Source: Callorhinchus milii
Lineage: Eukaryota
NCBI RefSeq assembly: GCF_018977255.1
Contig: NW_024704742.1
Location: forward strand, 105,836,001-105,900,000
Direction: 5' to 3'
DNA length: 64,000 nt
The number at the start of each line of letters is the position of its first letter. Position 1 is the first letter of the stretch. The notes below the pieces were generated by a model. That model did not search any database, was not told the DNA's origin, and saw only the letters and a list, made by a program, of their open reading frames with translations. This document shows positions 1 to 62,816 of the stretch, in pieces. Position numbers and translations under genes: made by a program.

Positions 1-534
1 AACCAAAACCTCTAAGAGCAATGACTCTAAGTGGGGTTCCCTGGGGCTTGGGGTGAGAGGGCATTAACCTGGTAAACATTGGCAACTCCACAGTAATCCA
101 AGCCAGACTTGGGGGTGTGGCTGTATCTTCAACCGAGCAACCCAAAGCCCTAATGAGAAGGATGGTCCTTAGCTGGACAAGTACCATGCTGCATAGTTAC
201 CCACTTTACAGTAACCAAAAACAACTGTTTTGAATGCTTTGCAGCAGCACGTTTCATTGGGCAATTATTTGAATTGTGTAAAATGAAACTGGTGTTATAT
301 TATGAAACAGAACGCTGACATTTTCCAGGGATTTGTGTCAAACTGTTCACACACAGTGAACACAAATGCATTCTTTGTTCTTCATTATTGACATTTTTCA
401 TGTAACGAGTAGGATGGATGGGGGAGGGGAAAGAGGGATTGGTTATGGGCGGGAAAGTAGGTTAACCCATGGGAGAAAGAACAGGAAAGCAACTTCATTA
501 CTGTATTGATAGCTATGTACGGTACTTCCATTTA

Positions 535-4696: not shown

Positions 4697-5242
<546 letters not shown>

Positions 5243-8200
5243 TAATGAGGGTCATCATACTCCAAAAGCTAAAAATAGCAATTTTTTATCACTTATATAT
5301 AATGGGATTCTTGCTATATTTAGCTTTTACAGTATGATAGTCTGAAACTACATTGTACCGTGTTTCCTTTTTACACTATGCCAATGTTGATGTTTTGAAT
5401 GATGAATATTATTTTAACTGGGATACTCTCAAAGCACTTGAGACTGAGTTGATTAATTACTTTGCAAAGGAGCTGTCTAATTCTGTGGTCGGTAATAAGC
5501 CTGGCCTAGCTAGACAACCAGAGGGAAGCTGGACAGACAGTGCTTTTAATGACAAGCTATGTGGTATTAGCTGGTTAAACTCTTATCAGTACCTCAGTGC
5601 ACACTTTAGGGTCCCCAAGCCTTAGCTCTTACCAACTTGCACCAAATACTCTCTGGAATTGAGTAAGCAAGATGCATCCCTCCAGGAAGAGAGTGAGTTT
5701 GCCATTCCAGACTTGTGTAGGTGTCATGCATATGTGGAACACCTGGTCTGGTTTGGATATTTGTTTGTATCTGGCTAACTTTTGGTTGGAAATAGGACGA
5801 GAAGTTACAGGAATATATGCAACTGGTGTTTAGAATGTGGTACTTTCTCTGCTGCTGAAGCCATGTGGTGGGATTGAGGTTCTTGTTATCTGAGGAGTAT
5901 GACATGCCAGGATTGAATGATAGGCACGCAGGAATGAATAAATAAAAATAATAAAAAAATTTACATCGGGGAGTATCAGTAGAAGGTTCTCTCTAGAGAT
6001 TAATTAGATGGGGTGGATAGACTTTGTAAAAGAAATGACCAGACATAATAACCTAAATGTTGCTGAACTGCAGTTTTAAAGGGCACCACTTTCCATGATA
6101 GAGGTTTTCAGCAAAATGTCATTTTCACAAACATGCAATGTGTCAATGTTTACTGTGTTAAGATGCATCATCTAGCCCTTTGTGCCTGACATGAATGACA
6201 TATCTTTTCTGCCTCTCATCCCTCCCACACAAAGGTTGTTAAAACTCTTTCTCAATGGCACTGCCTCTTTAAGAATACAATATTTACATTTATACAAAGC
6301 CTTCTACATTGGGCGAACATCTCGTACTGCTGGCTCGGCAACCTAGATGGGGGTGGGCAGCCCAGTGAGAGGGGAAAGATGACCAAAAGCGTGGACAAAA
6401 ATGGTTGTATTGAGCCTTACTTAACAACCCAAATGTACCTGTAGCTCACTGACATCTTTGCATGCACGGCAAAAGTGTGGTATTAGACAACAGTATGTGT
6501 AGACAATGTATTTGAACATTTGCTTACATTTGCAGTTGCAATGTTTTTTAGGCTGCTCTGCCAGTGAAGAGCAATAAGAAATACAACAAATTCATCTTCA
6601 GAAAATGTTCACTCCACATATGGACTTTTAAAGCATTCTTCTTAAAGGCACAGAAGCTGGGATCATACAACAAGAGGACTTAACCCCTAACCATCAGGCA
6701 TGGCTGGAAATATTGGGAAGTAACCTTGCTGTGCTTTCTGCTTGAAAGTACAAGAATCTACTTCAGAAGCAGTTTAGTTTAGATATTAAGGTTATGCAGC
6801 TGACAACGGAGAATTCAATTCCAGCTCAGAACAATTTCTCTTAAAAGAAATTTAACGCAACAACACATAACTCAACTTATTTTCTTTTAAAGCAAACCTC
6901 TAAACAGTGCTTGACAGTATCCGGATCCCATCCTGCTTGTTCCCCAACCCTGCACCTGCTGTAGGAATGAAAATTTCAGTGCACAAGTGGAGAGAGAGGA
7001 GCTGGTGATGCTCCTTGGGGGCCAAGCACATCTTATTCTCCACCGGGCAGTATATGTAACAACGCTGGAGATGTGGTCTTAGAGTAGGAAAATCTCATTA
7101 TATGCTCACATTGCCCAACTTGGTAAATTTACTGCCCAGCGAGGAATGACACTGACCTGTGAAGTTATATATCTCAGGATCATATTCCTTGAATAAATGC
7201 CCCCCGAGGATGCCACGAAATTGGATGCTGCAACCAAGGTTGCCTTCTGGATCATGCTGGATAGCTAACTACAGAGACCACCTCTGAACTGGGTACCACA
7301 AAGTGCCATGGGTCTGAAACCATTCTGCTACAGTTCTCTGTGCTGCTATGGAATCGATCACTGTGGACGATTAGTCATTGACAGTCACAGAATCTGAGAG
7401 CAATAAATACACATTCACAAAAGGCTGGCCTCTGTCTGGAGTCAGACAAGCTGGCTGCTTTGTGTGGTTGGATTTACACACGCGTCTCTGGCACTGCAGC
7501 CGGCTAGATACACTGCTGGTGACCTAAAGCTTCTCTGTTGCCTGTGTGCTGAGGGACCTGGGCTGCAGTATTTGGTTTTATGTTTCTCTTGGGAAAACTA
7601 CGAGTGTCTGGATGTCTGAAATATCTCAATGAGTGATCAGACTGGAAACCATATGGAAGGGGGATGGGGTGAGATAGCAACTACTAAATATTGCAGCAGT
7701 GTAGTGAAAATTTTTATCTAAAGTAATATTCAGCAACATTGCCACTTTTTTTTACATCAGTGGAATAAATGACATCAGATTGTCTTTCTTGTTTCAGAAA
7801 CCGAATGAAGTGGGATTTTTTTTTAAACGGGCTAATCTGATAAATTCCCCCAAAATTCCAAGAACAAAAAAAAGTGGAGGAAATAAAATATACTCAATGA
7901 CCAAAGCAAACTTGTAATAAAATTAAATGTGTGTTTGGTGATATTAGTACAGGTTTAAATTGAAGAAGGAAAGATTATGATTGCATTTAATCTTTCCAAG
8001 AAATAAAGGTAGGAATTGTATTTTATTTTCAAACTATGCTGTAACTATGTGCCTTAGGGAAATTAAACTATGTCTTAGAAGTGTGGGGCGGTGTGAAGTG
8101 AAATGGATGCTTCAAGCTTAATTCTCCGAGGTGCTGGTTAGATCTGCTAAATCTCACCTCAACAAAAACTCAGAAGTGCAGAGAGTAAAACTCCCGTAAC

Positions 8201-30300: not shown

Positions 30301-31477
30301 TGTGGATTGAATGACCAGTAAGGTTCCAACTTACCTCTAGGTAAACAGAGGCGCGTGGACTAAGGAAATTTGCCTAAGGTTTCGCCCCGCCCTAATATAC
30401 AAGAAAAACTACAACAACCAAAAATTACACTCGTATAGTGCCCTTCACGTCGGAAAACACCCGTCTTTTGGGAAAAGACATATTCCCAGACCATTGACCT
30501 AAAACAGACATATTCCCAGACCATTGACCTAAAACAGTCATTGGTGAACCCAGGTTACTGGTCAGCTGACCCACACAAACCGATTTTCCACTTTCACCTT
30601 CACTCGCACCTTAAACTAAATGTAACCTCCAAGATCAGGTTCCGATGGAGACAAAAAAAAGGCAAGTAGGAAATTCATTTTGTGGTGATATTATTTTCAC
30701 TGACAGTTTATCATTCCACCACAGGGAGTAGATCTGAATTATGAGTACAATAGTTTCTAAAACATAACTGGAAAAGGGGTGAAAGAAAATCACTTTAACA
30801 ATATTAAAATAAGGGGAGGGAGGGTGCTCACTTTAATCTCGAAGACTCTGGTTTGATTTGTGGCCTGCAGTCAGTCAATATTCCTATTAAACTGTGTTTA
30901 CCTACATTAAAATAATTGCAGAAAACCTTGTTACCAAGAAGATGTACACTTTATGTATTCCTGAAGAATAAAATCTCGAGGAAATCTTGTCACTGCATTA
31001 AATAAACAGCTTCCCGAATGGTGGACTAAACCGCACTGAAAATCGTTTCCAACCACATAAAGACATTTGTTTTATATGGATGAATTTCTCTGTGTCTTTT
31101 TCTAAATCCAATCCTCTGTCTGCAGGCGTGCTATGCCTATGATTTATGTATTTAATATTTCACTGTAGAAATATTACACACACCTTTCATATCAAGGAAC
31201 TGAGAACCCTGAAAATATGACCATTTTGCTTTATTGTCATTAATAAAACGTTGGTACATTTGGCTATATATATCACGTTTATTCTTGGAAAGCACAAAGT
31301 CAGAATACTTGATATTTACAATTGAAACGTATGGATTTTGAAGGACACGTGCTCATTTTGCAAGTGATTGTTGGCTATAGCATTAGGAATAATCAACAAA
31401 ATCGCTAGCTTTGGGAAGTATCAAACCATCTTCAGAAAATACACTAGAAATGGATATTTTTACCCCGTGTTTATGAT

Positions 31478-32210
31478 TATATCAGTATGTTTTGGGGTTA
31501 GGATTGGATCAGGGTGTTTTAGGATTAGGATTGTTTCAGTGTGTTTTAGGGTTAGGATTTATATCAGTGACAGTCTCGATAGTCTGGTGCATGAGCCAGG
31601 CGGGTCCGCAGTATTCCAGGGCACTGCTGATGACCACATAGCCAGTCTGGCTGATCGGCAGGACCTGGAAGGGCAGACCAGTCACTGGGAGCGGGGAGTC
31701 ATCCCACTCAGCTAATCCTGTTAACCCTGCAAACCTAAACCCTAACGGGTAGGGTGGTCCTAGCTGGACAAGCAGCGGGAAAGCTTGCCAGACAGCAATA
31801 TCAGTGGCAAGCTATGTGGTTTTAGCTAGTTAGACTCCAGCAGTATAGCACCACACCCGATTCCCCAAGCCTGAGCTCTTGCCAACCTGCGCCTAACACT
31901 TTCCAGAATAGGTAAGCAGGATGAGTCCCACCAGGGAGAGAGTGCGCATTCTATTCCAACAATTTATCCCTGGGATTTCCATGTGTAGGTGGGAGGCATG
32001 GAAATCTCAGCTTGGTTTGGATACTCTTAAGCACGGTGATGGGTGTCCGCTGACCAGAAAAAAAAGGTTTATATTTTTATGTGTTTTAGGGTTAGGATTT
32101 ATATGAATGTGTTTTAGGGTTAGCATTGTATCAGTGTGCTTTAGGTTTGCATCAGCGTGTTTTAGGGTTAGGATCAGGGTGCTTTAAGGTTAGGTATCAG
32201 ATTAAGGTGA
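31478..32210. repeat. Degenerate ~27-30 bp minisatellite containing TTAGGGTTAGG, interrupted by a ~500-bp insert
   Basis: Units like tcagtgtgttttagggttaggatt at 31478-31568 and 32080-32210. Confidence 0.8.
31565..32065 (+). mobile_element. Unclassified structured dispersed repeat ending in an A-run
   Basis: 31755-32025 aligns by eye to 5502-5760, and 31722-31772 aligns to 130-182; several internal hairpins; A-run at 32058-32065. Confidence 0.65.
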
Positions 32211-35200
32211 CTGCAGAAATTGTTGGCTGAGGTTTTAACCCATTGCCACATCACTCCACTGCACAGAGCAGCCTGGTCTCACATTAGCAGCTGTGCATTT
32301 CCTGGGAGTGCGGCTGAGTCCCTGGGTTTGCTTTCTCCCGCTGGCTTTAATTGTCAGCTCATCATTGGCGTGTAAAACGAGACCCATCAGCAACATAGCA
32401 GAGGTCTCACTGGGACAAAAACCCTTTGATCGGTCGCCAACCCCAGGTCACTAAAACAAGCTTCCTTTTTTTTCAAGGGGGAGGGAGGAAAGCACTTTAT
32501 AAGGAAAGATCTTATTCAATATCCTCTCTCCCAATGATCTTATTAAATAGCCCCCAGTCTGCCCAATGATTTAATAAATACAGTAACACCCCCACTTCTC
32601 CCCCCAATACATGTTATCAAATAATCCCCAATCTACTTTTTTGCAGGGATGATAGATCCCAGAGCCAAGCTGCGTCAGTTTCTTAAGGGAAGCAGATCAC
32701 AGCTTTATTATTATCCACACATTTTACACAACTTAATCCGACAAAGACTATAATTTTAGCACAAAAACAAAACGCAAACTGGTGAGTTAATGGCTCTGGT
32801 TCAAATGCTTGTTCATTTCAAATCCGTGGTGACAAGTTGATTTCAAACAGCAAGTCTTCGTCAAGTGTAAAACAGTTCCATTGTTAAGTGGGCTGAGGAG
32901 GGTCGTTTACTGGTGTGTGTGTGTGTGGGTGTGGGGTGGGGGGAAGGGTCGATTACTGGTGTGCATTTGTGTCTATGTGTGTTTGGGGGGGGGAGGGTCG
33001 ACTCCTGGTGATAGGAGCTTGAGATGGGGAGAGGACTTTTACCCATGAGTGGGATGGGGAGGGAGGTTTAAGGTCAGATTTTTTGCAGGCACTTCATGCC
33101 TTTCAGCCTCTGGCCAGTTAATGACAATCCCCATGGTTACCATGTGTACACATATCTTGAATGCCCAGCACACATTAAAGAGGCTGACTGGTGAAAAAGT
33201 ATTTGTTTTTTTTAAAATGATGTAAATTGATTTGAAAGGCATCGTTGCATCACTTGTCTCTTAATAGGATCATGTTGTAAAGGAATCCTAGTGCTTCATC
33301 TGCCCATTGTGTTCCCAAACAGCACATAGGTTTACAGAGGAGCTTGATTTCCACAGACAGTGGGGCTTTTAATATCAAATCATTGGAGTTTGCTCACCTA
33401 AAGTCATGGTTACTGTTTGGTGATGCGTAAAACAAATCTGAACCCTTCTTATTACAAATGAAGGGACTTTTTGTGTGATGAAGGTTGTACTTTAACTCTT
33501 CTTCAATGAGGTTGGGGTAAAATATTGATCTTGAGCTTAATGACCCCAACATTTCAAGAATGTTTCAATTTAAATATTTATTTAATGATGTATTAAGATA
33601 GTGATCAAAGGACTTTTTTTTCACAAACTTTTTTTTACCCTTCTTTCTTGGAGCAGCTGGATCTTTTCTGGGGTGTCTCCTAGTGTTGTAGCCAACAACT
33701 CCCAGATTTTTAAAAAGATAGTCCTTCACATTATGGTTGTTTGTGAAACATTGCTGTGAGCAAGTGCTTGTTTATAAATACAAGTTGAAATCCTGAGAAG
33801 TGCTTCAAAACTTTTCATTGACATGATAATACACTACATCATATGCAAGGATTATTATTAGCAATCCTCCAGATTAATTGGTCCTTTATTTCATGGCTGT
33901 TTATGAAATTTCTCACGCTAAAGATACCATGTTAACCTAAAAATATAGCCACTACACCTGACAATAGTTGCTTTTGAAGCACATTGAGATATTGCAACAT
34001 GATAAGACACTATAAAATTCCAAGTTCGTTTTTTCTTATTATTCCCTTCTGAATTCACTCTGTGCTCTCTGCCTCCCTGGATAATTAGTTCTTCTTGCTC
34101 TGTGTAAATTAATTAATTAAACTCTGTTCATGATCTCTCTTCCAAGCTTGAGTCTGTCCCATATTGCAGAGTTTGTGACTATGCTAAACATATTATTACC
34201 GTTCAGTTTATCAATATCTTTTAGGATCTAGGATGGGATCTCCACTGAGATCTTCTCCAGTATGAATATTACCAGCTTCCATAACTTCTTCCCATTTGTT
34301 CTTCACAGTCTTCTTAGACTGGTGTAAGCTTCTGTGCCTGCTGTAGAGAATCATCTGAAAGGATTCTGTAAGTTCAGAATCCCATTTTAACAGATATCTG
34401 TCCATATCAAAGCAAATTACTTAAAATATGCCCTACCTCACTTTTTTTTAGAACGTGGTTGCTTTTGCACTTAAAGACAATACAATTACCACATTGCAAA
34501 ACATTGTAGAAATGTTAACTTTGACTTTTATGAATAAAGGCTTCAGTTTAAAAATCATTAGGGTTGATCTTGCAGTATTTCTTAACATAATCCTTAATAG
34601 GAATACAAGTCACACAGATAGGGATTACTTTTGGTAATTGGAAGTATGTCATCCAAATCTAAAGTAACTCTGTTCAGATGCAATCTATTTCTGGAAGATT
34701 TCCAGCAATCAGTGGTATTTCTTAATTGGAATAAGAAATAATGTAATTTTAACAGTATTTCTTGTTCCCATTAAGAAATACCACAAATTAGGTCTCCCAT
34801 TATATTATAAAGTCAATTCCACATTAGGCGTATCTTATGACAGGAGATAAAGGAATGTATGGATTTACTTAATATTTATCTACTGATTTGAGTACATGTT
34901 TTTATTTGACTTCTGTATTCAGTTTTCCTCTTCCAAGCCAGCTCTTCATTTTGAGTCTACAAAGAATTTAGGCGTTTCCAGCAGGTAGGCCTTCCAAAAA
35001 GAAATCTTCTATCTGTTGAATAAAAAGATGGCTTCCCATTATAGAAAATTTCCCATTAGATTCTCGTTTTGCCTGTTTGTTCCCAGGGTCTTGTTTCAAT
35101 GCAGATTTGTTCATTCACAAAGCGATCGATTTTGGACCATATCAACAGTTTTTTTAATACAAAATTATTACAAATGTTTGCTCAGTGTCCATCAAGAGTT

Positions 35201-35278: not shown

Positions 35279-35910
35279 TACCTCACCCCTCAGGCCGCTG
35301 AAATTCTTGTTCGTGCTTTCATCACCTCCAGGCTCGACTATGCAAATGCCCTGCTTGTCGGCCTTCCCAACTCCTCCCTCCACAGGCTGCAGATAATCCA
35401 GAACTCTGCAGCCCGTGTCCTCTCCCGCACCAAACTCCATGATCCCATCTCCCCCATTATTGCCTGACTTCATTGGCTCCCTATCCTTCAGAGGATCCAG
35501 TTCAAAATCCTGGTCCTCACCTACAAAGCCCTCCATGGCCTTGCCCCATCCTACCTCTGTGACTTCCTAAACCCCTACCAACCCGCCCACTCCCTCCGCT
35601 CAGCTGGCTCTGGCCTGCTCCACGTCCCCCGACCCACCCGCCCCACCATTGATGGGGGAGCCTACAGCCACTCTGCCCCCAATCTCTGGAATTCCATTCC
35701 CCAATCACTCCGCCTCGCCCCCTCCTTAGACTCCTTCAGGTCCAGCCTCAAGACCCTCCTCTTCGACCATGCCATCGGCCAGCTCCCTTCTCCTCCGCTC
35801 CCTTCTCCTCCCCTGACCCCAGCTCAGTCTGAAATGCTGTACACTCTCCAGCGCCTTGGGACGTCTTCCCGACATGAAAGGCGCTATACAACTGCAATCT
35901 TGTTGTTGTT
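35279..35910 (+). mobile_element. L2 LINE 3' fragment (young)
   Basis: Translates AFITSRLDYANALLVGLP..LQIIQNSAARVL..LHWLP..RIQFKILVLTYKALHGLAPSYL, the L2 ORF2 C-terminus; ends in a stem-loop and (gtt)n. Confidence 0.93.
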
Positions 35911-38900
35911 ATAGTCTGGATACTGTCTAATATCTACTGTACCTAAAAAAAATTAGGAATGAGGAATGAGAAATAATCTGAATTTTTTAGAGATGATAAT
36001 TTTGTTCCTAGTGTGACCAACTGTGCAGGTGTTATAAAGGCTTTGTAGTGTTTGAAAGTTCATATTGTGGCTTAAATTAATTGGATCTGCCCCCGAGCAA
36101 TTGGCTCGGTTATCTTTGTAGCCCACTAGGGTTGAGCATTTACAGATATATTAAACGTGTATACAAAAATATAGCTTAGCAGAAATAACATAATACCATG
36201 TCTGTATCTGGTCATTCAATCCATGACTGTGCGCAATTGGCTGCCGTGTTTCGCCCACAAAATATACAGTCAATTCACTTTACAATATAATTCTATGAAA
36301 CACTTTGAAGCATCTCAATGATATGTTAAGGCGCTATATCAAGGGTTATTATTAATATTTATAGACATTAAATTTATTATTGTAAACTTTTGAAACGTCT
36401 TAGTCTCATCTTTGTAGGTCCCTCCAGCAAGCTGCATTTAGTGGAGAAGATCACATAGTAAATCCAAGAGAGAAAAAAGAACAAGAAAAAGAGAGACCCT
36501 GCTGGTTTTGTCTCATGTCTTGTGGGAAGTGCCTAGCCACTAGTGAGTGCCTTTTTCTAATCGGAAACATACTTAATAGGGAATTGTAAGCCCAAACATG
36601 CATCTTGCCACTGTAATGTACAGCACATGGGTACATCAATGCATTGTGCCACCAGGCTGCTTGAAGGCTGAAGTTTTCACTGGAGTAAAAGTACTAAACT
36701 GTTGAATGGCCTACAGTATCAGTCAGCATGTCATTTGTTTTAGTGTGAGCTGAGCTGTGGCAGATAATAAAGGATTCTCCCCTTTGGTGTCAGTTTAAAT
36801 GAATCTTTCTGTGCATATGCACACAGTCAATCTGTGTAGGTTCACATCCAATCCGAACTTTTGAGAACTGACTTGGATTAGTTCCTGTAGTGACGTTGAA
36901 GTTGTTGGAGTTGAACTGGGAGGAAAGGGAGGAACTAATCATGATGAACATTACTCAGCAGGAACTAGAATGTGTTGGGTGTCAAGTTTCCTCAATTGGC
37001 CTCTGGATCAGAAGGTTGGTGGTTCAAGCCCCATGTCTGGGTTTGATCATATAATCTGGAGCACTGACACTCCAGTGCCACACTGGGCAACATAATATTG
37101 GAGGTGGTGTCCTATGGATCAGATGTTAAACTTAGGTTCCGTCTCCATGCTCTCATAAGGTGCTATAAAAATACAACTTCCTTCTGCTTTTTTAATGGAA
37201 CCAATGCCAGATTTATTGTTCAGATCTATTTGTCTTCAGCTGGTAAAAACTGACCCGATAGTAATTTGATATTAGTCCATAAAAGATCTGGTGTGTTTCC
37301 AAAGCACAGGGCTGTTAAGTTAATATAAACGTATAGTGTAATGGTGCTTTCATTGAATAGTCAAAGCCAGATCTCGCAAAAGCAAAAGACTGTGAAAAAT
37401 ATGGCTCAGAGGTGGAGCACTTTTCTAATTCTATCTTATTGCTGGCTTTCCATTCTTGGATGTTCCATCACCATGTCTGAGTCATACCCCTTTTCAATAA
37501 AATTATCCTCTAAAATCTCTTTACCTTAGTTCCTCTCTGGCTGCCTTCAAAACTCACTTTAAAAACATATCTCCTCGACCTGTGCCTTAGGTCAACATCG
37601 TTAAATTCCCCCTTTTCCCTGCTTGATGCTCATTACAACTGCCAAGTACTTTGAGATGTTTATTCCAATATTCAAAGTACTGCACACACTGTTGCTATGG
37701 TAAAAGCCATAACTGCATTAACTTAAAGCTTTAAACAGGGTGCTAAGTGTCTCAGGTAAATAGAAGTGCCAAACACATTGGTCTTGGTCAGGTGAAAGGC
37801 ATTTGAGGCCTTGCATTTTTAGTGTCAGCTCAAATTAAAACGTTTGAAAAAGATTAAGAATCAGTGAGCATTTTATCTTTAGTGCTCAATAGATTCCTAA
37901 TGAGGTATTAGGTTTTATCAGTTTTCTTAAGCAAGGATTGAAAGTAATACTTATTTAATTAGCTATTCTAATTACTTAAAGTAAACAATTCTTTCATGAT
38001 AATCCTGTTGAGGAATGAGCGAGCATTTTATTACCATTTAGATTCTGCCTTCTTGTATTTGAATGCTGTATTTAAAGTGGCTGATTGTCACAACTTTGGT
38101 GATTCCCCATCTAATCCTATGCTAATGCTGGTGAAAATGTTGTTGCTCCTTGATCTCATTGCAAGTATGGTAAACCTCATGCATAATAAAAAATTGGGAT
38201 GAATTCTATTCTTGTGTAGGAAGTCAGTCCTTGAATAAGCAGTTTTTGTACTCAGCGGCCACAATACATTTTCCTTGCTCTCCTAGAGAGTAATTATTCT
38301 GATGTGTAACTTCATATAGAATAAATGGCCATTCAGTTCTTTTGTATAATTTTCATGGTTATGTATTTTTATTCCTGTACTCTAGCTCCTCGTATTACTG
38401 ACAGTGTTTTATCAGTAATACAGGCAGATGGGTATGATACAGGTGTGTAACTGAGAACAGCTGGTGGGATGGTTAGTTCCTTGTTGTCCTTAGAAATGGA
38501 TGGCTACTTAACTCAAAACATTAACTTTTTTAAAAGAAGGTTTACAAAGCAGGCTTTGGCATTATCAATTGAAATTAAACAAGATCATCTCTTGGGAGTG
38601 ATCTGACTTTGGTGGTGCAAGTCCAAGCTAAGGGTTTTATGCTGACTTTCCTGCCAAAATGTTAGCATGTATAGATGAGACCAGAAGTCCGTACTGTAAA
38701 AAGGCAATAATAAAGATACACAGTCCCACTGCTTTTTTCTGAAGGTGATTGAGTTTTGGTTTAGATTGAAACATTTTTTTACTTGAAATTGTTGCTCACA
38801 ACATTCACAAGCATTCTACTTAAGTTTTCAAAATAAGCTCCCGCTGATCATGCCTGCAAGTCAATGTGATCTCCTGTGGATTCTTTTGTTTGCAAAGTTA

Positions 38901-40331: not shown

Positions 40332-40532
40332 GTGGGAACTTTAACGTCCACCTGAATAGACATATGGGGCCTCAGTTTAACGTTTCATCCGAAGTATGGC
40401 ACCTCCGACAATATGGCACCCCCCCACCACTCCACTGGAGTGTAAGCATAGATCTCAGGAGTTCCGAGTCCTGACATGGGGCTTGAATCCACAACCTCTT
40501 TCTCAGAGGTGAGAATGCTACCACTGAGTCAT
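40332..40532 (-). mobile_element. tRNA-headed Deu-type SINE, 5' half
   Basis: Minus strand begins tgactcagtggtagc (A box) .. ggattcaagcccc (B box), followed by the core seen at 1630-1910. Confidence 0.75.
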
Positions 40533-41035: not shown

Positions 41036-42398
41036 TAGGAACATAGGAACACAGGAACAGGAGTAGGCCGTTCAGCCCTTCGAGCCTGTTCCACCATTTA
41101 ATTAGAACTTGGCTGATCTGTACCTTAACTGATCCTTTCAATTCCAATTTCCCGCCTTCTCCCTATATCCCTTAATACCCTGACCTACAAAAATCTATGA
41201 ACCTCACTCTTGAAGATGTGGATGGATGCAACACCCACAGCCTTTTGGGGGAGAGAATTCCAGATTTCTACCACCCTTTGAGTGAACAAATGCTTCCTGA
41301 TTTCACTCTTAAATGGCCTGGTTCTAATTTTAAGACTATGCCCCTTGTTTTGGATTCCCACCAGAGGAAATAGCTTCTCTGTATCTACCCTATCAAATCC
41401 CTTTATCATCTTAAATAGCTCAATCTTCTAAACTCAAGGGAATACAATCCAAGTTTATGCAGCCTTTCCTCGTAACTTAACCCTTTTAGGCCTGGTAACA
41501 TTCTGGTGAACCTGCACTGCACCTCCATTCAGGGTCAATATATCTTTCCTGAGGTGTGGTGCCCAAAACTGAATGCAATACTCCAGATGGGATCCGACTA
41601 ACACTCTATACAGCTGAAGTATCATTTGTATTCCAGGCCCCTTGAGATAAAGGCCAACAATTAGGGGCATAGAGTACAAGAGTCAGGAGTTTATGATTAA
41701 CCTATATAAAATGCTGGTTAGACCTCAGTTAGAATACTGCGCCCAGTTCTGGGCACCACACTATAGGAAGGCTGTTAAGGCATTGGAAAGGGTGCAGAGG
41801 AGGTTTACGAGGATGGTACCAGGAATGAGGGACCTTGATTATGAGGAAAGGCTAGAGAGGCTGGGATTATTCTCATTGGAACAGAGAAGGTTACGAGGAG
41901 ACCTAATAGAGGTCTTCAAAATCATGAGGGGATTTGATAGGTTGGAAAGGGAGAAACTATTTCCACTGGTGGGTGTGTCGGTGACTCGAGGTCACATATT
42001 CAAAATAGTATCTGAAAGAAGCAGAGGGGAGGTGAGAAGAAATTTTTTCACGCAGCGAGTTGTTCGAATCTGGAATGCATTGCCTGAAAGGGTGGTCGAG
42101 GCCGATTCGATAGCTACTTTTAAAAACGCGGTGGATGGGTATTTGAGGAGGATGGGTTTGCAGGGTTATGGGGAAAGGGCTGGGGAGTGGGATTGACATT
42201 AATTGCTCTATTCAAAGAGCCGGCATAAACTCGATGGGCCGAATGGCCTCTTTTTGTGCTGTACAATTCTATGATTCTATGATTCTATGAATTCACCTTT
42301 TTGCTTACTTTTTGCATCTGGGAACTAAATTTTAATGATTTGTGGATACGGACACGCAAATCTCTTTGCTCCTCCACAGTTCTTAATTTCTCCCCATA
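41036..42398 (-). mobile_element. Older CR1 LINE fragment split by a nested insertion (41036-41662 and 42290-42398)
   Basis: Minus ORFs LQLYRVLVGSHLEYCIQFWAPHLRKD and KGFDRVDTEKLFPLVG..FTQRVVEIWNSLP; (ttcctatg)-type tail at the left; antisense CR1 sequence resumes at 42290. Confidence 0.88.
41663..42289 (+). mobile_element. Young 5'-truncated CR1 LINE with intact ORF2 C-terminus
   Basis: Uninterrupted ORF 41693-42196 (LVRPQLEYCAQFWAPHY..LGLFSLEQRRLRGDLIEVFKI..FFTQRVVRIWNALP..GEWD*); three ATTCTATG units at the 3' end. Confidence 0.95.
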
Positions 42399-46084: not shown

Positions 46085-46440
46085 GCATCTCAAAGCGCTT
46101 CACAGGATTTAGTGTAAACTAAACTACAGATTTTGCAAGTGAACACTGAGGGTAATTTTCACACAGTAGTGTGCCACAAATAACCAGGAGGTAAAACACC
46201 AATTTTATTTGGAGGATTATCATTGATACTCCCTTCTTTTCTCGGGTAGTGCCTTGGGATCTTAATGTCCATCGGAGCAGGCAGGACCTCAGTTTTAACA
46301 TCTCATTTAAATGATGGCCACTCTGACAATGCAGAACCACTAGCACTGCATTGGCGTGTCAGTCCAAAGTCCTCATGTAGGGCTTGAACCCACAACCTTA
46401 TAATCTCGAGCAAGAGTGTTACCAGCTGAATCAGGTTGAC
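46085..46440 (-). mobile_element. tRNA/Deu-type SINE (similar decayed minus copies near 47640-47900, 53080-53370, 63200-63460)
   Basis: gggcttgaacccacaacc (reverse B box) and gggatcttaatgtcca..cctcagttttaacatctcat core. Confidence 0.65.
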
Positions 46441-61030: not shown

Positions 61031-61239
61031 GGGAGGAGCAGAGGGAGGCCGTGCGGGAGTCGAGGAAGGATAGGAGTCAGGGCAGGAGGAAAGAGAGGAG
61101 GGTTGAGCGGAAGTAGTGGAGGGAAGGGGACGGAGTCGGGAACATCTTGGGGAAGCAGCTCGGGTCAATTGCGGCAGCCAATGTGCACACGCTGAGACTA
61201 AGTGCGGACAGGAGTGTTCAGCGAGCCGTGGTTAGCCCG

Positions 61240-61378
61240 CTGGGCTGGGCAGGGCAGGGCTGGGCAGGGTTGGGTTGGGCTGGGCTGGGCTGGACTGGGC
61301 TGGGCAGGGATGGGCTGGGCAGGGTTGGGTTGGGCTGGGCAGGGCTGGGCAGGGCTGGGCAGGGATGGGCTGGGCAGG
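61240..61378. repeat. Pentamer array (GGGCT/GGGCA/GGGTT)n
   Basis: Directly visible; about 27 units. Confidence 0.97.
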
Positions 61379-61509
61379 TGAGGCTCAGTGAGGAGATGTG
61401 GGCAGTGACGTCTTCCCAGTGAGTCCTGGCCTCGAGATTCAAATGAGGCGGGCGGGATGAAATCACACGGCAGCGGTTACTGATTGGCTGAGCCTTCAGA
61501 GAGTCTGGG

Positions 61510-62572
61510 ATGGTGGCGCGGGCACTGTTGGTGGAGAGGTCGTCGTTGGTGGCGCGGGCGCTGTTGGTGGTGCGGGCGCTGTTGGTGGAGAGGTCGATGT
61601 TGGTGGAGAGGGCGCTGTTGGTGGAGAGGGCGCTGTTGGTGGAGAGGGCGCTGTTGGTGGAGAGGTTGTTGTTGGTGGCGTGGGCGTTGTTGGTAGCGCA
61701 GGCACTGTTGGTGTCATGGGCGCTGTTGGTAGAGAGGTCGTTGTTGGTGGCGCGGGCGCTGTTGGTGGAGAGGGCACTGTTGGTGGAGAGGTTGTTGTTG
61801 GTGGCGTGGGCGCTGTTGGTGGCGCAGGCACTGTTGGTGTCGTGGGCGCTGTTGGTAGAGAGGTCGTTGTTGGTGGCGCGGGCGCTGTTGGTGGAGAGGG
61901 CACTGTTGGTGGAGAGGTTGTTGTTGGTGGCGTGGGCGCTGTTGGTGGCGCAGGCACTGTTGGTGTCGTGGGCAATGTTGGTGGTGCAGGCGCTGTTGGT
62001 GGCACGTGTGCTGTTGGTGGAGAGGTCACTGTTGGTGGTGCGGGTGCTGTTGGTGGAGAGGTCACTGTTGGTGGCTCAAGCGCTGTTGGTGGCATGGGCA
62101 CTGTTGGTGTCGCGGGCGCTGTTGGTGGTGCAGGCGCTGTTGGTGGCGCGGGCGCTGTTGGTGGAGAGGTCACTGTTGGTGGCACGGGCGCTGTTGGTGG
62201 CGCGTGCACTGTTGGTGGAGAGGTCACTGTTGGTGGCGCGGGTGCTGTTAGTGGCGCGGGTGATGTTGGTGGCGCGGGTGATGTTGGTGGCGCGGGCGGT
62301 GTTGATCACGCGGGTGCTGTTGGTGGAGAGGTCGCTGTTGGTGGCGCGGGTGCTGTTGGTGGAGGGGGTGCTGTTGGTGGAGAGGTCTTTGTTGGTGGCG
62401 CGGGCGCTGTTGGTGGCGCGGGCACTGTTGGTGGCGTGGGCGCTGTTGGTGGCATGGGCGCGGTTGGTGGCGCAGGTGCTGTTGGTTGTGCGGGCGCTGT
62501 TGGTGGCACGGGCGCTGTCGGTGGCGCAGGCGCTGTTGGTGGCGCGGTTGCTGTTGGTGGCGTGGGCGCTGT
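61510..62572. repeat. 18-bp GC-rich minisatellite (consensus CTGTTGGTGG[C/A]G[C/A]GGGCG), about 59 units
   Basis: Six-residue periodicity in all reading frames (LLVARA, GGAGAV, RGRCWW; minus PPTAPA). Confidence 0.98.
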
Positions 62573-62816
62573 AGGTGTGGACCAGCGGAGGTGGTGAGTT
62601 CCTCACGAGTCCCTCCGCACCGCACCAGATAGCCTTGGGCCCTGCACTGGGACTTGTCGCTGCTCGGAGTGTCTAATTCTGCTCCAGTGAGTTCCACAGA
62701 CCTCGAGGCAGCTTCATGGTGGGTTCTTCCACCTCAATGAGCTACAATGAGACACTTTATGGATGGAAATACATTCTAATGAGTGCTGAGACATGACATC
62801 ATATGTAAGTGGCATC

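Follow-up and report, generated by a model that had tools for sequence, protein, structure and literature searches.

The window analysed here is a 64,000-nucleotide stretch of the Callorhinchus milii genome, and it contains a retroposon copy inserted in a minisatellite. The parts of this insertion and of its host repeat are as follows.

31471..31569, plus strand: left arm of the minisatellite, 3.6 units of 27 bp with a TTAGGGTTAGG-type core (tandem-repeat analysis, units listed)
31540..31564 and 32080..32104, plus strand: left and right copies of an exact 25-bp repeat, each most of one satellite unit
31554..31564, plus strand: candidate 11-bp target-site duplication, left copy, with a run of four T from 10 to 7 bases before it (31544-31547)
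31565..32057, plus strand: body of the retroposon copy, delimited by depth bins, loose-end consensus and GC content
31712..31746, plus strand: degenerate C-strand telomere-like tract of 35 nt, four to five AACCCT-like hexamers, the last part of which is aaccctaac
32058..32065, plus strand: A-run of 8 A; the family consensus likewise terminates in A residues
32065..32074, plus strand: candidate target-site duplication, right copy, 10 of 11 with one base missing
32079..32200, plus strand: right arm of the minisatellite, containing the second 25-bp copy (repeat analysis)

The body of the copy is richer in GC than the window (54% against 40%) and ends in the A-run, as a preliminary description made from the sequence alone had noted. 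That description also saw the insert as bracketed by the 25-bp repeat, with the caveat that this repeat might be just two satellite units. A sequence check confirms that the repeat is exact, but its right copy does not adjoin the tail, being separated from the A-run by 14 nt that resemble the start of a broken satellite unit. The caveat is favoured: the repeat is best read as two neighbouring satellite units, and its interpretation as a target duplication is unsupported. The more likely target duplication is the pair at 31554 and 32065, whose right copy stands directly 3' of the A-run and matches at 10 of 11 positions, inside a tandem repeat. A long 25-bp duplication with a 14-nt filler between tail and right copy is possible; it would account for a pair of units more alike than any other in the array, with an exact run of 25 against 18 for the next, and 26 of 28 positions aligned against 20-25 for nine other unit pairs. 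At the other end, positions 31565-31569 are compatible with both the satellite and the family consensus, from which we infer a 5' microhomology of 5 nt. About 17 nt of the 3' region of the family are absent from this copy near 32045. Sequencing run X1 contains both junctions (31100-31621 and 32018-32450) with zero differences, and because it covers them in this way the locus is no assembly error. No empty site occurs among the joints listed (15 of 1,382).

The description of the flanks as a telomere-like minisatellite holds as far as motifs go, since four exact TTAGGG are present, but the unit is 27 bp long and the array is only 68-69% like a pure TTAGGG repeat. In organisms B and C the first 1.5 units of the left arm have single-copy depth, and one contig of organism C spans 32160-32404; contigs of organisms B and C stop near the insert site. 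With the orthologous flanking sequence and portions of the two satellite arms likewise covered at single-copy level in one or other of these organisms, the satellite is old.

The insert belongs to an abundant family. Parts of it, amounting to 0.09-0.43 of its words, are contained in 20 of 24 listed sequencing runs, which represent organisms A-D plus unlabelled samples from 8 studies. No RNA run appears in that listing as a holder of the insert, a result that is uninformative on expression. Four of the 24 runs were aligned to the window at 80% likeness: X1, X5, X6 and the RNA run X21. The aligned contigs number 37,100 for X1, 17,491 for X5 and 24,414 for X6. In X1 the flanks, satellite included, have a depth of 7-17, against 20,000-380,000 in bins 31560-32065. 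The median ratio of inside to flank depth is about 16,000 in X1, 3,900 in X5 and 5,200 in X6; summed depth is no copy number, and these values can be read only as a family of thousands of copies.

Mean depth climbs about 2.6-3.0-fold from the 5' third to the 3' third of the insert. The loose ends of the aligned contigs give identical 5' and 3' consensus sequences in three organisms, terminating in A residues. On the 5' side the family reaches at least 31562, judged from loose ends of up to 30 letters among the rows listed (24 of 2,507). Behind 32048-32050 the 3' loose ends show about 17 nt without counterpart in the copy at 31565-32057, and then GGCTGACC and A residues. As the family is common to at least three organisms in the aligned runs, its insertions could serve as phylogenetic markers.

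RNA run X21 (organism B, about 27% read) yielded 4,543 reads matching the insert, 9 of them at least 99% alike and 3,042 less than 90% alike. First mates fall on both strands at similar depth, 84% of the reads run past the match into sequence that differs, and neither starts nor ends form a peak across the insert. This pattern fits copies carried within other transcripts, while a discrete RNA is neither shown nor excluded.

Two further pieces of the family lie in the window.

5500..5762, plus strand: older 5'-truncated copy, without A-run and without satellite flanks (E 3e-30)
128..187, plus strand: short fragment matching 31720-31778 (E 2.5e-4)

The copy at 5.5 kb, already recorded in the preliminary description together with its lack of satellite flanks, is real on both counts: 181 of 257 aligned columns are identical to the insert, and it begins at about 31755 in insert coordinates. 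The shorter piece is part of a fragment at 1-187 that is cut by the start of the window. Its last 60 bases match 31720-31778, and its first 127 look by eye like an RTE 5' UTR, with motifs like those of RTE-12_AMi in the supplement of PMC5786205. Alignment of 1-127 with the 5' part of the insert gave no significant link, with 102 of 808 tiles scoring as well.

Another copy came to light among proteins. In UniRef, two predicted xanthine dehydrogenases of C. milii, P0004 and P0005, end in about 39 residues from a family copy, in place of the usual C-terminus. These were 2 of 18 candidates from the peptide searches; 31 of 37 residues match. This copy begins at about 31600 in insert coordinates and starts five residues after the conserved coding sequence. 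This tail probably reflects read-through of an intron or a wrongly predicted last exon, and possibly an exonisation. Masking the family would clean gene models such as this predicted C-terminus. Counting the insert itself, 5' starts therefore vary between copies: 31565, about 31755 at 5.5 kb, and about 31600 in the xanthine dehydrogenase copy. The last of these also lacks 31713-31715, three positions missing from about half of the aligned depth in three organisms (among variant rows listed, 40 of 187). Their absence from half of the depth suggests that the family comprises two or more old subfamilies.

The plus strand of 31568-32070 folds somewhat better than its shuffles (z -2.45, 2 of 100), and the minus strand folds less well (z -1.27, 9 of 100). 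The predicted ensemble is a row of local hairpins.

31614..31670, plus strand: long irregular hairpin, helix probabilities 0.85-1.00
31782..31813, plus strand: 9-bp hairpin, of whose 9 pairs the 5.5-kb copy breaks 2 and compensates none
31886..31920, plus strand: hairpin with the best sign of conservation, from the predicted fold and the 5.5-kb comparison
31970..32010, plus strand: 14-15-bp hairpin, its 14-bp stem made of 13 Watson-Crick pairs and one G-U
32013..32056, plus strand: terminal hairpin closing at the tail (predicted fold)

Local z-scores are -3.3, -2.6, -3.5 and -1.0, for regions picked after seeing the fold. Two or more perfect stems of at least 10 bp occurred in none of 150 shuffles, and three of at least 9 bp in 2 of 150. 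The earlier view of the insert as a structured sequence is thus borne out, and most of the internal pairings listed for it stand. The segments 31633-31642/31811-31820 and 31782-31790/31805-31813 are exact complements, and the 14-bp stem is present, although with its one G-U pair. The first two helices overlap at 31811-31813, however, and the long-range one, 31633-31642/31811-31820, is missing from the set of helices whose pair probability exceeds 0.5.

The same description had suggested covariation, because the 5.5-kb copy seemed to keep stems at equivalent places with different sequence (ctggaat/attccag and aggtgt/acacct). This suggestion does not survive alignment (A2). Of the 7 pairs of the first stem, 4 are unchanged in the insert, 2 are broken and 1 falls in a gap, and no change is compensatory; of the 6 pairs of the second, 1 is kept, 1 is changed on both sides and 4 are broken. 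When six insert helices, two of them mutually exclusive, are compared with the 5.5-kb copy in the same alignment of two sequences, the 45 pairs divide into 23 unchanged, 6 with a one-sided change, 3 with a two-sided change, 9 broken and 4 in gaps. The hairpin at 31886-31920 has an outer helix with 4 pairs unchanged and 1 changed on both sides, and an inner helix with 2 of 5 pairs broken. RNAalifold, run on two sequences, counts 5 two-sided changes in 55 pairs. Two sequences are too few to establish covariation. For the last hairpin the alignment is ambiguous, MAFFT and nhmmer disagreeing; a hand register based on the stems would give several two-sided changes but clashes with a 10-nt identity to the loop. 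The 5.5-kb copy itself folds no better than its shuffles (z +0.55, 142 of 200).

The motif aaccctaac, reported earlier as complementary to the flanking repeat, is present at the end of the 35-nt telomere-like tract. Against a pure telomeric repeat the tract scores 27, a value reached by none of 1000 shuffles and none of 128 real tiles of the window; softer scoring gives 0 of 1000 and 1 of 128. The tract is real, beyond chance and unexplained. The preliminary description had put forward a possible preference for TTAGGG-like targets; in its fullest form the idea would be that a retroposon without a Pol III head has such a preference, a conserved internal C-strand tract assisting by pairing with the DNA during insertion. 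The fragment at 128-187 keeps part of the tract, and the insert copy does sit in a satellite with exact TTAGGG motifs. Matched against its actual flank, however, the tract does no better than 15 of 128 real tiles and 16 of 1000 shuffles. No TTAGGG stands at the junction. Priming takes place at the tail, about 310 nt away from the tract, and in the predicted fold the tract is partly paired within the RNA itself (31739-31742 with 31747-31750). The copies at 5.5 kb and in xanthine dehydrogenase have unrelated 5' flanks. The flank-level depth of X1 in the satellite means that almost no other aligned copy has such a flank, with the reservation that at the 80% likeness threshold pure TTAGGG flanks could be missed, the satellite being as divergent from them as it is. 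We regard this kind of target choice as improbable, and the statement that the element targets telomere-like DNA is unsupported. Were it true, an internal stretch of a vertebrate retroposon would be helping, as RNA, to choose the target, and only then would the locus have wider importance.

Target-primed reverse transcription by LINE proteins is an established mechanism. It is the reading favoured for this insertion because of the A tail, the candidate short duplication, the variable 5' starts and the depth gradient, and we put the probability that the element is a LINE-mobilised non-LTR retroposon at about 0.85. The features expected at the level of this class are present: many dispersed copies with shared ends, an A tail and variable 5' truncation. 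The insert is an old copy of an abundant A-tailed non-coding element of chimaera-type fishes, and the insertion is real and ordinary. LINE proteins supplied in trans would have mobilised the non-coding A-tailed RNA, a LINE endonuclease nicking a T-rich site in the already existing minisatellite. The LINE reverse transcriptase, which may recognise the 3' hairpins, would then have copied the RNA from its A-tail. Synthesis would have halted slightly short of the 5' end, with joining through the 5-nt microhomology, and the duplication of about 11 bp would have been left behind. The satellite would be an incidental landing place. If it is no more than ordinary, its contribution is one further A-tailed family for the repeat catalogue of a vertebrate lineage that evolves slowly and in which the SINEs described so far carry L2 tails.

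What kind of LINE relative the family represents is less clear. The preliminary description had called it a non-autonomous retroposed structured RNA; retroposed, non-coding, A-tailed and hairpin-rich it is, but its non-autonomy does not follow, as a truncated LINE tail fits almost equally. The best lead is an internally deleted (bipartite) element of RTE type, and we give a non-autonomous element with RTE-like motifs slightly less than an even chance. A 12-mer RTE-like motif occurs at 31879 with 2 mismatches (2 of 246 tiles match as well) and a 9-mer is exact at 31936 (1 of 246 tiles); these motifs come from the supplement of PMC5786205, were chosen after reading it, and derive from different RTE subgroups. 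A terminal GGCTGA, RTE-like by eye, precedes the tail in the family consensus and is absent from the insert copy itself. A further lead, likewise picked after the fact, is the RTE-like appearance by eye of window 1-127, which is continued by the piece that matches the insert. According to PMC6007223, RTE duplications are mostly 10-12 bp, often A-first in animals, and follow a T run near -10. The candidate 11-bp duplication shares this pattern, starting with A after its T run, a weak indication from a single site in an array where a T run recurs in every unit. Against RTE membership, the 12-mer has at least 4 mismatches in the 5.5-kb copy, and the family tail is plain A, whereas each of the 18 RTE LINEs tabulated in PMC6007223 (table 2) ends in a microsatellite. 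No partner LINE emerged for the insert family.

The insert could alternatively derive from an autonomous A-tailed LINE (L1/Tx1-like or Vingi-like) with its own proteins encoded further upstream; it would then be the hairpin-rich 3' untranslated end of that LINE, truncated at the 5' side and inserted by the mechanism already outlined. We rate this serious contender only slightly below the RTE-type reading. In X1, X5 and X6 the family extends beyond the aligned start on the upstream side, depth increases toward the 3' end, three different 5' starts are seen and there is no B box, all of which such a tail would explain. Loose ends before 31592, however, equal those behind the 3' end in length (median 214-255 letters), as if unique flank were near. 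The two 5' open frames match no reverse-transcriptase protein, a result that carries no information should the untranslated tail extend beyond this copy; peptide searches with the open frames gave no protein link to a reverse transcriptase, a weak negative, and the second 5' frame and the minus-strand frame gave no peptide match. A solo LTR or other LTR-type element is very unlikely. A TG at 31568 and a CA at 32056 could serve as its bounds, but the bases flanking these ends are not repeated, AATAAA and ATTAAA are lacking, and the family passes upstream of the TG, ends in an A-run and is truncated 5' in its copies. Still less weight, close to none, can be given to a telomerase RNA retrocopy family or an insertion of the TERC-ITS type. 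A template-like motif with 2 mismatches in 10 does lie within this structured sequence of 500 nt beside telomere-like repeats, and TERC-ITS loci occur in sharks according to PMC8537989. Four other conserved TERC motifs, taken from vertebrate TERC sequences in its supplement, are nevertheless at background, with 65, 94, 111 and 121 of 124 tiles as good. There is no Rfam match, and the TERC-ITS fragments described in PMC8537989 are of 25-98 bp at single loci.

Some other identities were considered and rejected. A SINE with a tRNA, 5S or 7SL head finds no tRNA, Rfam match or B box in this one worn copy, which is not the family consensus; we give no weight to a likeness of the 5' end to tRNA and 7SL RNA seen by eye. 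The possibility of self-cleavage raised by the preliminary description is not borne out by motif descriptors or by Rfam. For a hammerhead retrozyme or Penelope-like repeat there is a lone CTGATGA at 31627, without stem II and its GAAA partner and without an Rfam match. An HDV-like ribozyme at the 5' end is unmatched on either strand, in a copy that lacks the extreme 5' end of the family, and again has no Rfam match; a relaxed HDV pattern matched 3 of 60 shuffles and not the insert.

Among the closest described systems, bipartite RTE elements and RTE-tailed SINEs (RTE-N1_Lch, CoeSINE4/5, WALLSI3, RTESINE2; PMC5786205) are like the insert non-coding and a few hundred bases long; the insert has short motifs resembling pieces of RTE 5' UTRs, and its family consensus the terminal GGCTGA. 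The duplication pattern of RTE in PMC6007223 is likewise that of the candidate of about 11 bp, A-first and after a T run. The insert family differs from the bipartite elements of PMC5786205 in being longer (at least 520 nt), in its plain A tail and its internal telomere-like tract, and in that no parent RTE was recognised; by eye no long alignable stretch with RTE elements was seen in part of the supplement. With the tails of A-tailed LINEs (L1/Tx1, Vingi) it shares the A tail, a candidate duplication within 7-18 bp, variable 5' starts and 3'-rising depth, but it has no visible ORF2 and is GC-rich and strongly paired throughout. The CmiSINEs (SINE2-1_CM, SINE2-1B_CM) and SacSINE1-CM of C. milii (PMC5499810) are found in the same kind of host, are non-coding and reach high copy number. 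They are built of a tRNA head carrying the A and B boxes, then a CORE or Deu body, and finally an L2 tail; no tRNA or B box, in contrast, is present in the insert, which matches none of the other repeats in the window. TERC-ITS loci (PMC8537989) similarly place telomere-like repeats beside a reverse-transcribed structured sequence, but each is a single locus holding 25-98 bp of telomerase RNA, unlike a family of thousands without TERC motifs. In the supplement of PMC8537989, the hagfish TERC appears identical to that of the Arctic lamprey and carries sea-lamprey coordinates, which may be a table error.

Database searches gave little more. Rfam returned nothing at gathering score for the 64-kb window, and up to E 10 only two bacterial small-RNA models (E 4.5 and 7.9), far below threshold. 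A metagenome pattern scan gave 118 loci, none matching over more than 37 columns; scans of genomes and viral contigs gave one locus each, both due to chance. Three repetitive bacterial-type proteins matched by open-frame peptides were also judged chance (Pfam scan; one aligned). No description of the insert family was found among the titles and openings of abstracts searched, and no paper was found for five of its sequence motifs together. The family may already be named in Repbase or Dfam.

The window otherwise has many LINE and SINE fragments and an intact ephrin exon at 4901-5194 (Pfam Ephrin, E 8e-35), which we take to be that of ephrin-A5. The 5.5-kb family copy lies about 300 bases past the splice donor of this exon. 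Open frames at 41651-42196 (181 codons) and 35468-35914 (148 codons) presumably encode the C-termini of CR1 and L2 reverse transcriptases. A tRNA-headed SINE fragment at 1645-1800, by eye like SINE2-2_CM in the supplement of PMC5786205, has related pieces at 37001-37152, 40376-40508 and 46293-46429. At 61239-62577, (GCTGG)n of 27 units precedes a GC-rich tandem array about 1,070 bases long (periods of 36, 54 and 126 bp), which carries open frames of 270-380 codons on both strands.
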